Origin: an uncultured delta proteobacterium
GTDB lineage: Bacteria; Desulfobacterota; Desulfobaccia; Desulfobaccales; 0-14-0-80-60-11
DNA: 64,000 nucleotides
Direction: 5' to 3'
Assembly (NCBI GenBank): GCA_963812015.1
Contig: CAWETI010000002.1
Span: 1,024,001-1,088,000 of the forward strand
Part shown: one piece after another, positions 10,112-35,543 of the stretch
Position numbering within the stretch: position 1 is the first letter of the stretch
Layout: each line of letters opens with the position of its first letter
Made by a program: the position numbers and the translations under genes
The notes under the pieces: model-generated
What the model was told of the DNA's origin: nothing
The model's input: the letters and a program-made list of their open reading frames with translations, nothing else
The model's database searches: none

Positions 10112-10381
10112 ATGGCATTTTGGAATGATATGCTTAAACTGAATCCTACCAATATCCTGGTGGGTATCGGGGTGGCAGTGGCAGTACCGGTGGTGCTGCC
10201 GGTGGTGGCCACGGTCGTCCGCCCCCTGGTCAAGGCCGCCATCAAAGGCGGCTTCACCCTGGCGGATACGGTGACGGAATTCGTGGCGGAGGCCGCCGAG
10301 CAAGTCAGCGACCTGTATGCCGAGGCCAAGGCGGAGCACCTGGCCGGTGGCGCTGCCGCGGCCAAGGATCCTCAGGCGTAA
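10112..10381 (+). CDS. DUF5132-like small protein
   Basis: Hydrophobic segment, then RPLVKAAIKGG ... EQVSDLYAEAKAE. AAGGAG RBS. Confidence 0.8.
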   Translation: MAFWNDMLKLNPTNILVGIGVAVAVPVVLPVVATVVRPLVKAAIKGGFTLADTVTEFVAEAAEQVSDLYAEAKAEHLAGGAAAAKDPQA

Positions 10382-10394
10382 AGGTTGACCTAGC

Positions 10395-10847
10395 ATGACC
10401 GATAGTGAGATCAGGATTGTTCATGCCATACCGGGGCGGGTCAGGCTCAAGGTCGCTAGGCTGAGGGAGAACCCACCCCTGGCTCGGGTCATTCAAGAGC
10501 GCCTGGGGGCCGTCCGGGGTATCCAGGGGGTGGAAGCCACTCCCCTGACCGGCAGCGTGCTGGTGCTTTTTGACCCTCAGGCCATCACGTCCCCGGAGTC
10601 CCTGGCGACCCTGTCCGAGACGCTCACCGGCCTTTTTCCGGGACCGGATCTGACCCAATTGGCGGATTTTCTGAGCCGGTCCATGGCGGTGGAAGAGGCC
10701 GGGCTCACCTGGTCCGAATTTGTGGTGGACTTTTTGGTGGACCTCAACGCCCGACTGGGGAGTGCCCTGGGAGGGTTGGCGGATTTCCGGCTGCTGGTCC
10801 CCCTGGCATTGGTGGTTTTTGGACTGCCGAGATTGCTGAACAAGTAA
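10395..10847 (+). CDS. HMA2-type heavy-metal-associated domain protein
   Basis: HAIPGRVRLK and TPLTGSVLVLFD motifs, C-terminal hydrophobic segment. Confidence 0.8.
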   Translation: MTDSEIRIVHAIPGRVRLKVARLRENPPLARVIQERLGAVRGIQGVEATPLTGSVLVLFDPQAITSPESLATLSETLTGLFPGPDLTQLADFLSRSMAVEEAGLTWSEFVVDFLVDLNARLGSALGGLADFRLLVPLALVVFGLPRLLNK

Positions 10848-10980: not shown

Positions 10981-11787
10981 TTACCCCGCGCTTCCCAAGA
11001 CGTGTTCGTTAAGGTACCAGGTGAAGGCCGCCGCGTCCCGGGCGCTTTTGAGGTAAAGGTCCAGGTGGGCCTCGTCCTGGGGGTAGAAGCCCGGATAGCC
11101 GGTGGGGGCGGCGCCGCCGGGGCAGTGGACCAGAGCGGTGAGCCAGATGGCGGGGATGAGGCGCCATTCCGGCTGGTCTTGCAGGGGGCCGGCCACCCGT
11201 TCTTCCACCGTGGCGATGACCTGACGGGAGGCGGTGACGGCCAGGTGCCAGTCAGAGACCCGGGGAATGAGGATATTGCCCCGGGAGTCGCCCCGGCCGG
11301 CGTGTACCAGGGTGACGTCGGGAATCAGGGCCTGGACCGCCACCAGGTCTTGGCCGGAAAAGGGATCAGGTATGACCCGGAAGCGGGGATTGACCGACAG
11401 ATACGCAGAGCCCAACATGCCCCGGACCGGCAGAAACGGCGCCCCCATGCCCCCCGCCTGGAGGGCGCGCAGCAGCGCCCCTCAGGGGTACTCCAGACAG
11501 TGCAGGCGGCCCGCCTGGACCGCGGCCCGAAAGTGGGGGGCCATGCCGTATTCCTCCAGCCCCACCTGGGCGAAGTGGAGGCGGTCGGCCACCCCGGCGC
11601 CCACGGCCAGGTCGACGTTGAGGCCCCCGGTGGGCACGGTGATCAACCCCAGGTTCCGGCGACCCTGGCGGATGAGTTCCCGGATCAAGGCCATGGGGGC
11701 GGCGCGGCTGTGGCCCCCCAGGGCCACCAGGTCCCCGTCCTTTACCAGCGCCGCCGCGGCGGCCAGGTCAGTCCAGACAGGTGGCAT
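10981..11787 (-). CDS. Family I CoA-transferase alpha-type subunit (GctA-like) with in-frame UGA at codon 102, probable selenocysteine
   Basis: ORFs 11482-11787 and 10981-11448 are in frame and join through TGA (11482-11484) into 268 aa. Motifs VKDGDLVALGG, PMALIREL, PFLPVRG, PDVTLVHA..GD..GN, VIATVEE, PGGAAPT. Hairpin follows the UGA. Confidence 0.8.
11438..11479 (-). promoter_or_regulatory. Putative SECIS hairpin of the CoA-transferase gene
   Basis: mRNA lower stem GGCGCU/GGCGCC, upper stem GCCCUCC/GGGGGGC, apical loop AGGC starting 22 nt after the UGA. Confidence 0.55.
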
Positions 11788-12373
11788 CGCGGTCTCCCGC
11801 TATGGGGTGGGCCCCCAGGTAGGCCAGCAGGTTAAGGAGAATGCGGGCGGTGGCCCCCCAGACCACCTCCTGGCCGTTGTGCCAGTAGCAGACCCGGGTG
11901 GTGCGGCCCTGGAAGGTGTAGGGGCCGGAGCGCCAGCGTTCCGGGGGAAAAAACTCCGCCACCGGCCAGGTCAGCAGGCGCTTGACTTCCCGGGGACTGG
12001 GCCGAAAGTCGTAGGGGTGGGGGATGAGTCCCACAAAGGGAGTGATGTGGTAGCCGGTGATGGTGGCCACCGGGGGGAGCGTTCCCAGCACCTCCACCGC
12101 CTCGGGCGCCAGGCCGATCTCCTCAAAGGTTTCCCTCAGGGCCGTGCCCAGGAGGTGGGGGTCCTCCGGGTCCCGGACCCCGCCCGGAAAGGCGATCTGC
12201 CCCCGGTGATCCTTCACCAAAAGGGTGCGCTGGGTGAACAGCACCTGGACCTCCCCCGCCTTGAGGAACAGGGGCACCAGCACTCCGGCGGCAACCAGGT
12301 CCGACTCCGGCCCCGGCGGGGCCGGCTCCTGGGGCAAATGGTCCTTGAGATGGGCCAGGATTGAGGTGACCAT
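11768..12373 (-). CDS. CoA pyrophosphatase (Nudix, NudL/PCD1 family)
   Basis: LFTQR..HRGQIAFPGG, Nudix box ALRETFEEIGL, EV, VWGATARIL. Confidence 0.9.
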   Translation of the reverse strand: MVTSILAHLKDHLPQEPAPPGPESDLVAAGVLVPLFLKAGEVQVLFTQRTLLVKDHRGQIAFPGGVRDPEDPHLLGTALRETFEEIGLAPEAVEVLGTLPPVATITGYHITPFVGLIPHPYDFRPSPREVKRLLTWPVAEFFPPERWRSGPYTFQGRTTRVCYWHNGQEVVWGATARILLNLLAYLGAHPIAGDRDATCLD

Positions 12374-12520
12374 AATTCTTTTTACCACGGCCCCGGGGTC
12401 CTGGCAACCGCCAGGCCGAAGCCGGTGGTCGCCGGACCGGCTTAGTGATGAGGACCCGCCGGGGAAACCCGCAGCCCCCGCCGATCCCGCCAGGCCGGCC
12501 GGAAGCTGCCGGGGGTGCAA

Positions 12521-12549
12521 TTGACAAGGCGCAGAATGAAGCTTATGTT
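12521..12549 (+). promoter_or_regulatory. Candidate sigma70 promoter
   Basis: TTGACA-N17-TATGTT upstream of the ferritin-like gene. Confidence 0.55.
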
Positions 12550-12621
12550 GATGTAGGGTTCAGCTCATGGGCTCTGCAGCCCATCAACATGCAGGAATCA
12601 GCTGACAGGGAGATCGCCACC

Positions 12622-13146
12622 ATGAAAGTGCAGGAATATATGCTCAAGGCGTTGAAAGACGCCGTGCAAATGGAGGTCGAAGGCCGCCAGTTTTATCTGG
12701 AAGCGGCCAAGAAAGTGAAGAGTGCCGGGGTCCGGGATATCATGGCGTACCTGGCGGAGTCGGAAAAATACCACATCGAAAAATTCAACGAGGTCTACCG
12801 GAGCCTGGAAAAGGACCCGTCCTGGACCGAAACCATAGCGGCCTTTAAGCCCCCCCAGCACGAGCCTTATGTCTGCGTCATGGCCATGACCAAAGATGAA
12901 CAGGGCGCCGGCGGCCAGGATGACCTTCAGGCCCTCAAGACCGGCATCAAGATGGAGGAGTGCTCCATCGACTACTACACCAAACTGGCCAAGGAAGCCA
13001 CCAACCCCCTGGCCCGGCGCTTCTTCATGAGCGTGGCCCATGAAGAAAGGGGCCACTACCTGACCCTGATGGATATGCACAACTACCTGACCATGCCGGA
13101 GGACTGGTTCTACGTCACCCAGATGAGCAATGTGGATGGGGGCTGA
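12622..13146 (+). CDS. Ferritin/rubrerythrin-like di-iron protein
   Basis: Repeated E...FY / EKYH and E...YY / ERGH motifs. Confidence 0.88.
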   Translation: MKVQEYMLKALKDAVQMEVEGRQFYLEAAKKVKSAGVRDIMAYLAESEKYHIEKFNEVYRSLEKDPSWTETIAAFKPPQHEPYVCVMAMTKDEQGAGGQDDLQALKTGIKMEECSIDYYTKLAKEATNPLARRFFMSVAHEERGHYLTLMDMHNYLTMPEDWFYVTQMSNVDGG

Positions 13147-13208: not shown

Positions 13209-13964
13209 GTGGAGTTGATCGTGGTAGGTTCCGGCACCGGGGTGCCCTCCCTGCGCCGGGGCTCGCCGTCCCTGGCGGTCAAGGCCGCCGGCCGACTCCT
13301 GGTCCTGGACCTGGGGTCCGGAACCCTGCGGGCCCTGTTACGTCTCGGCCTCAATTTTTCGGCCATCGACGTTCTGGCCCTGACCCACCTGCACCCCGAC
13401 CACGTGGGGGATCTCATCCCCTTTTTGTTCGCCACCCGCTACTCCCTGGGCTACACCCGCCGGGAGCCTTTCCGGCTCCTGGCCGCCCGGGGGTTTGCCC
13501 GGTTTCACGCCCGACTCCAGGAGGCCTTTAATGGCTGGGTGGAGCCGCCCCCCGGCCTCATGGACCTTAAGGAACTCGCCCCGGACGGCCCGGATGAAGT
13601 GCGGGACGCGGGCCTGGTAATCCGGAGCGCCCCCACCAATCACACCGAAGGGAGCCTGGCCTTTCGGGTGGAGGCTGAAGGCCGGTCCGTGGTCTATTCC
13701 GGGGATACGGCTGAGAGCGACTCCCTGGTGGACCTGGCCCGGGGAGCGGATATTTTGGTGCTGGAGGCCGCCAACCCCTTCAAGGTCCCGGGACACCTCA
13801 CTCCCCGGGAAGCCGGGGGCTTGGCGGCCCGGGCCGGGGTGGCCCGCCTGCTCCTGACCCACTTTTATCCGCCCTGCGATGCAGTGGACGTGGTGGCCCT
13901 GGCGGCCCAGGAGTTTTCCGGAGAGGTCCTCCGGGCCGAAGACGGCCTGAGCCTCACCGTGTGA
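13209..13964 (+). CDS. MBL-fold metallo-hydrolase (RNase Z/ElaC-like)
   Basis: GSGTG, THLHPDH, YSGDT, H, LTHFY motifs. Confidence 0.88.
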   Translation: MELIVVGSGTGVPSLRRGSPSLAVKAAGRLLVLDLGSGTLRALLRLGLNFSAIDVLALTHLHPDHVGDLIPFLFATRYSLGYTRREPFRLLAARGFARFHARLQEAFNGWVEPPPGLMDLKELAPDGPDEVRDAGLVIRSAPTNHTEGSLAFRVEAEGRSVVYSGDTAESDSLVDLARGADILVLEAANPFKVPGHLTPREAGGLAARAGVARLLLTHFYPPCDAVDVVALAAQEFSGEVLRAEDGLSLTV

Positions 13965-34493: not shown

Positions 34494-35543
34494 TTAAGGC
34501 TCCAACCTGATCCTTCCCGGGGCTTGGCCGGTCACCTCGCCGATGAGCGCCGCCTTGATACCGTTGAGCTTTAGGCAATCCATAAGGACCGCCGCCCGGT
34601 CCGCGGCTACGGCGAGGAGCAGTCCGCCGTTGGTCTGGGCGTCACTGCAGAGGTCCACCAGCAGCGGATCGATCCCTGTTGCCACCGTAAGGCTCTTGGT
34701 GCAAAAGTTACGGTTGGCGAAACTGCCGGCCGGCACCAACCCCATGGCGGCATATTCCCGGGCCGCGGACAGGATCGGCACTTGATGGACTACAAAAGTA
34801 AGCTCGACGTTGCTGGCCACCGCCATTTCCAGGGCGTGACCCAGGAGGCCGAAGCCGGTGATGTCCGTGATGGCATGCACCGCCAAGTGGTCCAGGCACG
34901 CCTCGGGCAGCCGGTTCAAGGTCGTCATGACCTGGATGGCCTCGGCCTCCGCCTCCGGGGAGGCCAGGCGCCCTTTCACCGCGGTGGCGATAACACCGGT
35001 CCCCAGGGGCTTGGTAAGGATCAGCCGGTCGCCCACCCGGGCCCCGCCGTTGGTAAACACCCGTTCCGGGTGGACCACCCCGGTTACGGAGAGGCCGTAT
35101 TTCAACTCGGTATCGTCGACGCTATGGCCACCCAGGAGCAGGGCCCCGGCCTCATGAATCTTATCCAGGCCGCCGGCCAAAATAGCCTGGAGCACCTCTT
35201 TGGGCACGGTCTGGCAGGGGTAGCAGACAATGTTGAGGGCCGTTAAAGGCCGGCCGCCCATGGCGTATACGTCGCTTAAGGCATTGGCCGCGGCAATCTG
35301 GCCAAAAGTGTAGGGATCGTTGACCACGGGGGTAAAAAAGTCCACCGTCTGGATCAACGCGATCTCGGGTGTCAGGCGATACACGCCCGCGTCATCCGCC
35401 GTCTCCATGCCCACCAGCAGGTTGGGATGCGACTGGACGGGCAGAGTCTGCAAAATTTCCTCCAAGATCCCGGGAGGAATTTTAGCAGCTCAACCGGCGG
35501 CGCGGACCTGCTCCATCAAAGGCTGATAGCTTTTTTCGGTCAT
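34494..35543 (-). CDS. selD: Selenide, water dikinase SelD, a selenoprotein (Sec18)
   Basis: MTEKSYQPLMEQVRAAG-TGA-AAKIPPG is in frame with the track ORF. Motifs DDAGV, TVDFF, ANALSDVYAMGG, GGHS, TDITGFGLLGH, DAQTNGGLL. Confidence 0.96.
35448..35488 (-). promoter_or_regulatory. SECIS hairpin of selD
   Basis: CUGC-UAAAAU-UCCUCC ... GGAGGA-AAUUUU-GCAG stem immediately after the UGA (35490-35492), with a G-starting apical loop. Confidence 0.75.

Follow-up and report, generated by a model that had tools for sequence, protein, structure and literature searches.

Does the TGA triplet that interrupts a coenzyme A (CoA) transferase-like gene in an uncultured delta proteobacterium end that gene, or is it read as selenocysteine (Sec), and what would a Sec residue do in a protein of this fold? 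The gene lies on the minus strand of a stretch of 64,000 nucleotides, hereafter the window, taken from GenBank assembly GCA_963812015.1 (contig CAWETI010000002.1, positions 1,024,001 to 1,088,000 of the forward strand; phylum Desulfobacterota, order Desulfobaccales), and coordinates below count from its first letter unless another contig is named. Read through its UGA codon, the gene (11787..10981, minus) runs over 268 codons from an ATG at 11787 to a TAA stop at 10983..10981 and encodes an alpha subunit of the CoA-transferase fold, similar to GctA, AibA and IpdA. A first-pass annotation made from the sequence alone had described one frame of 268 amino acids in which a TGA was the only lesion. 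Translation of 11787..10981 agrees with that description: a single TGA, codon 102 at 11484..11482 (minus), is the sole break in the frame, in the context RLHCLEYP-U-GALLRALQAGGMGAPFLPVRG. From the comparative evidence given below, the gene is very probably a genuine selenoprotein gene in which Sec is decoded at codon 102, and it represents an uncatalogued selenoprotein family.

Conservation of the in-frame TGA

When 41 related genomes were searched with stop codons read through, 11 full-length matches were obtained from two genera (72-100% identity), and all 11 hold exactly one TGA, always at codon 102. A scan of species-representative genomes added 24 further loci, named Desulfobaccales, Desulfobacca or “delta proteobacterium” metagenome-assembled genomes (MAGs). 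Among the 35 loci analysed, one fragment short of codon 102 (L071) was dropped and one locus (L060) is frameshifted, while the other 33 collapse into 24 distinct gene sequences. TGA is found at codon 102 in all of these distinct orthologues (24 of 24), and the protein sequence is conserved on both sides of it. The frameshifted MAG orthologue (L060:4001-4794) also keeps the TGA and the hairpin described below; its frameshift, near codon 40, may be an assembly error or the mark of a decaying copy.

The codon is conserved well beyond this order. Within the 150 matches listed from 401 genomes sampled across the phylum, forms with one TGA occur in 23 genomes of 11 families, and 20 of the 28 phylum-wide loci that were fetched carry a TGA, in every case at the alignment column of codon 102. 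The distant TGA-bearing homologues, from other families of Desulfobacterota, share 33-50% identity with the window protein (76% for L073).

In protein databases the gene appears in another shape. The best 120 matches are all C-terminal pieces that start at Met114 and have about 155 residues, the product to be expected of gene callers that take the TGA for a stop. As the gene is routinely annotated as a truncated fragment of 155 residues, metabolic reconstructions of these anaerobes miss the enzyme. The TGA itself is not reassigned throughout the genome, since the neighbouring NUDIX gene ends in TGA, which is thus an ordinary stop there.

The site is also covered by contigs of another DNA run and of three metatranscriptomic libraries that belong to different studies. 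None of the 40 differences listed for these contigs falls at 11482-11484, with 135 more lying outside the list; the contigs from RNA libraries that span the gene are no proof of transcription, strand or expression level.

A conserved hairpin downstream of the UGA

Recoding of UGA as Sec in bacteria depends on a selenocysteine insertion sequence (SECIS), a stem-loop with a G in its apical loop at a suitable distance downstream. A hairpin of stem GCCCUCC/GGGGGGC and loop AGGC, 22 nt downstream of the UGA, had been claimed in the first-pass annotation. It was located at 11466..11449 (minus), with the loop at 11459..11456. The stem begins 15 nt and the loop 22 nt after the UGA, and the core that is common to all Sec forms spans 11464..11450. 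For bacterial SECIS elements, the spacing window used by bSECISearch is about 16-37 nt. Neither Rfam at gathering thresholds nor ARAGORN reported anything in the window, so there was no SECIS match from Rfam.

Comparison among sequences supports the hairpin in several ways. Among all 6-codon windows of the gene, the one that encodes it, codons 108-113, shows the least synonymous entropy: 0.069 bits, where the gene averages 0.82 bits (24 orthologues; mean over 177 informative codons). The loop bases GGC are invariant in all 40 distinct Sec-form sequences. In the same 40 sequences, 90.8% of the 240 cells of a six-pair helix are paired, compared with 32-66% when the register is slid. At three of the six helix positions both partners vary (CG/GC, CG/GU/UA and AU/GC), and helix covariation reaches 0.431 against 0.178 in shuffles, a value that none of 500 shuffles attains. 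One compensatory pair joins the second base of codon 110 (Gln/Arg) with the synonymous third base of Ala111. In ten non-Sec homologues only 29 of 60 cells are paired in the same register.

The register that follows from the stem in the first-pass annotation (pairs summing to 55) was tried and rejected, as it misfits the distant Sec forms; the counts above use the register one nucleotide off, with which all of these agree.

Cysteine counterparts and the selenocysteine machinery

Known selenoproteins have homologues with Cys at the position of Sec. For the window protein, 134 full-length homologues, found by searching 1.84 billion representatives, were aligned. The column of residue 102 is variable among them (E 54, C 31, G 12, N 9, A 6, H 5, S 4, few others), and the closest full-length homologues without a stop (39-45% identity) all carry Cys there. 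A FastTree tree (146 rows) unites all 26 Sec rows with 20 Cys rows in one clade (support 100) that has no other residue at the column, so that Cys or Sec is found in 46 of 46 clade rows; the Glu, Gly and Asn types fall outside. At least four switches between Sec and Cys are required within this clade. The column is the only one in the subfamily at which Cys or Sec is universal. A second Cys column is occupied in 25 of the 46 clade rows; the window protein has Tyr231 there, which means that no second thiol is universal.

From the above, the suggestion that Sec stands in for a Cys of homologues is borne out by the nearest stop-free relatives and by a clade made up of Sec and Cys forms alone. It needs a qualification, however: Cys is present in the close homologues, but it is not generic to this position of the fold, where IpdA has Glu105 and the VPQGT motif discussed below has its Gln.

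The Cys forms are widespread. One Cys-type clade (motif D-[AS]-T-C-P-A; metagenome loci L126-L205) is very frequent in metagenomes from soil, peat and sediment: at least 598 stretches matched in a survey whose query, an alignment of seven rows from one Cys clade, covers that clade only. Both types can also occur together: on one contig of 4.6 kb (L118; G192:C132), a Cys-type and a Sec-type alpha/beta pair face each other, and the pairs are preceded by a gene with an HpaB C-terminal domain, of a family that includes 4-hydroxybutyryl-CoA dehydratase.

The genome encodes the complete machinery for Sec: tRNA-Sec (74.7 bits), selB (368.5), selA (608.5) and selD (372.7), all above curated cut-offs. 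The selD gene lies in the window itself (34596-35513, minus; TIGR00476, 372.7 bits) and has one in-frame TGA, as the first-pass annotation had noted; SelD is a known selenoprotein type.

The features shared with catalogued selenoproteins (FdhA, SelD, GrdB and the flavoprotein of the CoA-disulfide-reductase type) are an in-frame UGA, a downstream hairpin with G in its loop, Cys homologues, and the genes selA, selB, selC and selD. The window protein differs from them in that it lacks a thioredoxin-like fold and has neither a UxxC nor a CxxU motif. Selenoproteins form a small group, made up mainly of redox enzymes with thioredoxin-like folds.

The first-pass annotation had left it as a question whether the family is already catalogued. 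Among the 119 prokaryotic selenoprotein families and subfamilies in the whole of Table 1 of a May 2026 review (PMC13188914), there is no CoA-transferase or PF01144 entry; the passages searched in a 2022 review (PMC9312934) contain no CoA-transferase selenoprotein either, and full-text searches of the open-access literature for such a protein returned nothing relevant. One candidate paper, PMC7176365, was set aside since it concerns formate dehydrogenases.

Position 102 in the CoA-transferase fold

The assignment of the protein to the CoA-transferase fold is clear from sequence and from a predicted structure. The PF01144 (CoA_trans) profile matches residues 8-198 with 77.7 bits (cut-off 23). 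No NCBIfam model exceeded its cut-off with the alpha product, and none is specific to the selenoprotein form. The best solved relatives by sequence are 5mzw_A (1.5e-33), followed by 6con, 6co6 and 6coj (3e-18 to 5e-17) and 1poi_A, a glutaconate CoA-transferase (4.8e-17). An AlphaFold2 model of the read-through protein, built with 71 sequences, has a mean predicted local distance difference test score (pLDDT) of 96.6 and a predicted template modelling (TM) score (pTM) of 0.93, and Foldseek aligns it with AibA, GctA and IpdA at TM scores of 0.87-0.91. In the model, residue 102 is the first residue of a helix (102-114) and comes right behind a strand (96-99).

Sequence alignments place residue 102 at a column of particular interest in IpdA. 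Wild-type Rhodococcus jostii IpdA (6co6_A) has Glu at this column and 6coj_A has Ala, and the PDB title of 6coj is that of an IpdAB E105A COCHEA-CoA complex; Sec102 thus corresponds to IpdA Glu105. IpdAB of M. tuberculosis and R. jostii (6con, 6co6, 6co9, 6coj), the ring-opening hydrolase of COCHEA-CoA, resembles the window protein in the fold of its alpha subunit (TM 0.89-0.90), in having a key residue on the alpha subunit at the same column as Sec102, and in using a CoA-transferase fold for a reaction that is not a transfer, namely a retro-Claisen hydrolysis as described in passages of PMC6678751. There are also differences. Glu occupies the column in IpdA, which falls outside the Sec/Cys clade and shares only about 27-28% identity with the window alpha subunit, and IpdAB has adjacent alpha and beta genes of its own in a steroid-catabolic setting. 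The Glu of this hydrolase type at alpha position 105 is replaced by Sec in the window protein.

The best match in both sequence and structure, for both subunits, is the decarboxylase AibA/AibB of Myxococcus xanthus (5mzw-5n03; alpha TM 0.87), another enzyme that uses the CoA-transferase fold for something other than transfer. It differs at the column in question, with Gly in the motif EHDGY of AibA in place of Sec. At a variable position of AibB (C in 5mzw; V, A or S in other deposits), the beta subunit of the window genome has Val, so the AibAB-type combination of a Cys in AibB and a Gly in the alpha subunit is replaced here by Val and Sec.

The classical family I CoA-transferases (AtoDA, ScoAB/SCOT, GctAB) share the PF01144 domain, the alpha fold (TM 0.69-0.91) and the architecture of two subunits. 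Their alpha subunits differ in having Gln at the Sec102 column, which in E. coli AtoD is the Gln of the VPQGT motif. Their catalytic Glu is located in the SENG motif of the beta subunit.

A putative beta partner encoded elsewhere

No beta-subunit gene is adjacent to the alpha gene of the window, in line with the first-pass annotation. The only other PF01144 gene of the genome, 540 kb away at G000:C2:495566-496294, encodes a beta-like subunit of 243 residues that is most similar to AibB (4e-21 to 1e-20). The beta gene is present in 8 of the 41 related genomes, all 8 of which have the alpha gene as well, and in none of the genomes without alpha. In most of the distant Sec forms, beta is located immediately downstream of alpha, so the split arrangement is peculiar to the Desulfobaccales clade.

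When the beta subunits of Sec-type and Cys-type pairs, the one from the window genome and 8 others, were aligned with E. coli AtoA, which has SENG, the glutamate motif was found in none of them (0 of 9). Because the beta subunits of this subfamily are without the SENG glutamate, the protein does not appear to be part of a classical ping-pong CoA-transferase.

A gene for an MBL-fold protein of 309 residues precedes beta in 8 of 8 loci (85-100% identity), here at G000:C2:494279-496294 together with beta (L035/L036, outside the window), and MBL-fold genes are also located directly upstream of the Cys-type alpha gene in metagenome loci L141 and L145.

Overlap with a CoA pyrophosphatase gene

Directly upstream of the alpha gene and on the same strand lies a NUDIX gene whose longest open reading frame (ORF) covers 11768..12520 (minus). 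Its true start is probably near 12373, from where alignments of orthologues begin. The product matches PF00293 with 47.4 bits and the CoA pyrophosphatase model NF007980 with 135.2, a borderline value relative to the cut-off of 134; it can be assigned, with that reservation, to the NudL type of CoA pyrophosphatase. Its TGA stop (11770..11768) falls within the first codons of the selenoprotein gene, and the two genes overlap by 20 nt (11768..11787, minus), as given by the coordinates and by tblastn of orthologues.

The overlap was thus correctly reported at first pass, and it is a conserved feature: in 23 of the 24 distinct loci of orthologues the NUDIX gene immediately precedes alpha and overlaps it to the same extent, the tblastn match ending at +16 from the ATG, while in L011 the NUDIX and alpha genes are about 400 nt apart. 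Such an arrangement suggests that the two genes may be translationally coupled. In the loci examined, the distant Sec and Cys forms had no NUDIX gene as a neighbour. What distinguishes the window is an alpha gene that is probably coupled to the gene for a CoA pyrophosphatase, while beta lies in another part of the genome. The earlier idea of a two-gene module for handling CoA holds as far as the NUDIX link is concerned, but it does not account for the beta-like subunit, which is unlinked and co-occurs with alpha.

Proposed mechanism and function

We consider it probable that the locus is best explained overall as a Sec-decoded alpha subunit of the CoA-transferase fold that belongs to a non-transferase enzyme of acyl-CoA metabolism. 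In this mechanism, SelB carrying Sec-tRNA(Sec) would bind the hairpin, with the GGC loop 22-23 nt past the UGA, and the ribosome would insert Sec at position 102; the decoding step is modelled on the known SelB-dependent recoding. Sec, or Cys in the sister forms, may then serve as catalytic nucleophile or base on a CoA-bound substrate. The enzyme could be a lyase or hydrolase in the style of AibAB or IpdAB, with a CoA thioester from another enzyme, a ligase or a family III transferase, as its substrate, and the alpha subunit may act together with the unlinked beta. In Desulfobaccales, the alpha gene would have left its beta partner and become translationally coupled to the CoA pyrophosphatase gene. 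Once Sec decoding is granted, the non-transferase acyl-CoA function is evenly poised between being right and being wrong.

Gene contexts of related forms are mixed, and some of them fit acyl-CoA chemistry. For example, genes for an AMP-binding acyl-CoA ligase and an acyl-CoA dehydrogenase are upstream in G254, a ligase gene is directly upstream in G205, and of 20 long metagenome loci from one Cys clade, 6 have a family III CoA-transferase gene next to alpha.

Several points weigh against this explanation. Folded as a single sequence, the UGA region does no better than shuffles (z = 1.15) and takes a different minimum-energy structure, so the support for the hairpin is comparative. The peptide motif A-L-Q-A-G-G partly predisposes the DNA to pair, with non-Sec homologues being 48% paired, and kinship among the sequences inflates the shuffle statistics. 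As to function, the catalytic role of IpdA Glu105 is one reportedly assigned by Crowe et al. 2018. The database names of 8 Cys-type homologues are generic (“CoA transferase subunit A”) and give no functional lead. Alpha occurs without a detectable beta in G008 (98% complete) and G021 (94%), and also in G003 (56%), in searches that included PF01144; the absence from G008 and G021 makes the alpha/beta pairing insecure in the Desulfobaccales clade. Some gene contexts, namely the operon of G040/G085 and the loci of family f38, suggest thiol redox chemistry instead.

If the Sec-decoded acyl-CoA enzyme is real, the selenoproteome would gain a new enzyme class, with Sec at the likely catalytic column of the CoA-transferase fold, and Sec/Cys would be a third solution at this column in the AibAB/IpdAB branch, besides Glu or Gly. 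The coupling to a CoA pyrophosphatase would offer a testable handle on an unexplored part of CoA metabolism. As a tentative extension, doubtful in our own estimate, Sec102 might form an acyl-selenoester or an Se-S-CoA adduct and, with the coupled CoA pyrophosphatase, repair or dispose of damaged CoA (disulfide, persulfide or aberrant acyl forms). If true, this would be a selenium-dependent module for CoA quality control with no described counterpart.

Alternative explanations

The main rival accepts the selenoprotein and disputes its chemistry. Here, Sec/Cys would be a redox centre that attacks a CoA disulfide, a mixed disulfide of CoA and protein, or a CoA persulfide; an Se-S-CoA intermediate would form on the enzyme, as on the single Cys of CoA-disulfide reductase, a flavoprotein or thioredoxin would reduce it, and the NUDIX enzyme would clear damaged CoA. 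In the loci of family f38 (L114-L117), a gene for a CoADR/Nox-type flavoprotein, itself with an in-frame TGA (SYSAU-AIPYY), is convergent with the Sec alpha/beta pair, and a CMD/AhpD-like gene is divergent upstream. However, these loci come from a single family and the flavoprotein gene is only convergent, which may be plain synteny. In L119 and L120 (G085, G040), genes for a DUF255 thioredoxin-like protein, a thioredoxin-reductase-like protein, a Cys-type alpha and beta follow each other on the same strand, so that the two thioredoxin-related genes directly precede the pair; other clades are found in acyl-CoA operons whose further genes encode a ligase, an acyl-CoA dehydrogenase, a thiolase or a family III transferase. 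The conserved divergent rubrerythrin gene upstream in the window would also fit a redox role, and so would the fact that one Cys/Sec column alone is universal in the subfamily, but the window protein has no CxxU or UxxC motif and carries Tyr at the second Cys column (occupied in 25 of 46 rows). Passages of PMC13188914 describe catalogued selenoproteins as mostly redox proteins, while AibAB and IpdAB, the solved relatives of this protein, act on thioesters. On this balance, a redox centre is rather unlikely, and an acyl-CoA enzyme with Sec at position 102 is the reading we prefer.

A split alpha subunit, consisting of an N-terminal piece of 101 residues and a piece of 155 residues that starts from the ATG of codon 114, is very improbable, even though gene callers annotate the gene in this way and the best 120 database matches are pieces of about 155 residues from that Met. 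Codons 103-113, which lie between the TGA and that ATG, are conserved as protein and align with stop-free homologues. Met114 is replaced by Lys in L011 and by Leu in L073, leaving no start codon in those loci, and in the distant Sec forms, where the TGA column is kept, no start further downstream is conserved. The read-through protein is also predicted to fold as one domain (pLDDT 96.6).

A nonsense mutation or sequencing error in a pseudogene, for which the frameshift of L060 and the lack of the gene in 6 of 17 genus members searched might speak, or read-through with an amino acid other than Sec such as Trp, is hardly credible, as the same TGA stands in 24 distinct orthologues and 20 distant homologues with protein conservation on both sides, the further contigs agree at 11482-11484 as far as their listed differences go, the sister forms carry Cys and not Trp, and the neighbouring NUDIX gene uses TGA as its stop.

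Other genes around the locus

Upstream of the NUDIX-alpha pair, genes for a rubrerythrin (12445-13146, plus) and an MBL-fold protein (13209-13964, plus) are oriented divergently, and both neighbours are kept in most of the orthologous loci that extend far enough. Downstream, genes for a DUF5132 protein (10112-10381, plus) and a protein with heavy-metal-associated domain 2, HMA_2 (10395-10847, plus) are convergent with the alpha gene, and they were found again in one of the 23 other loci (L003).

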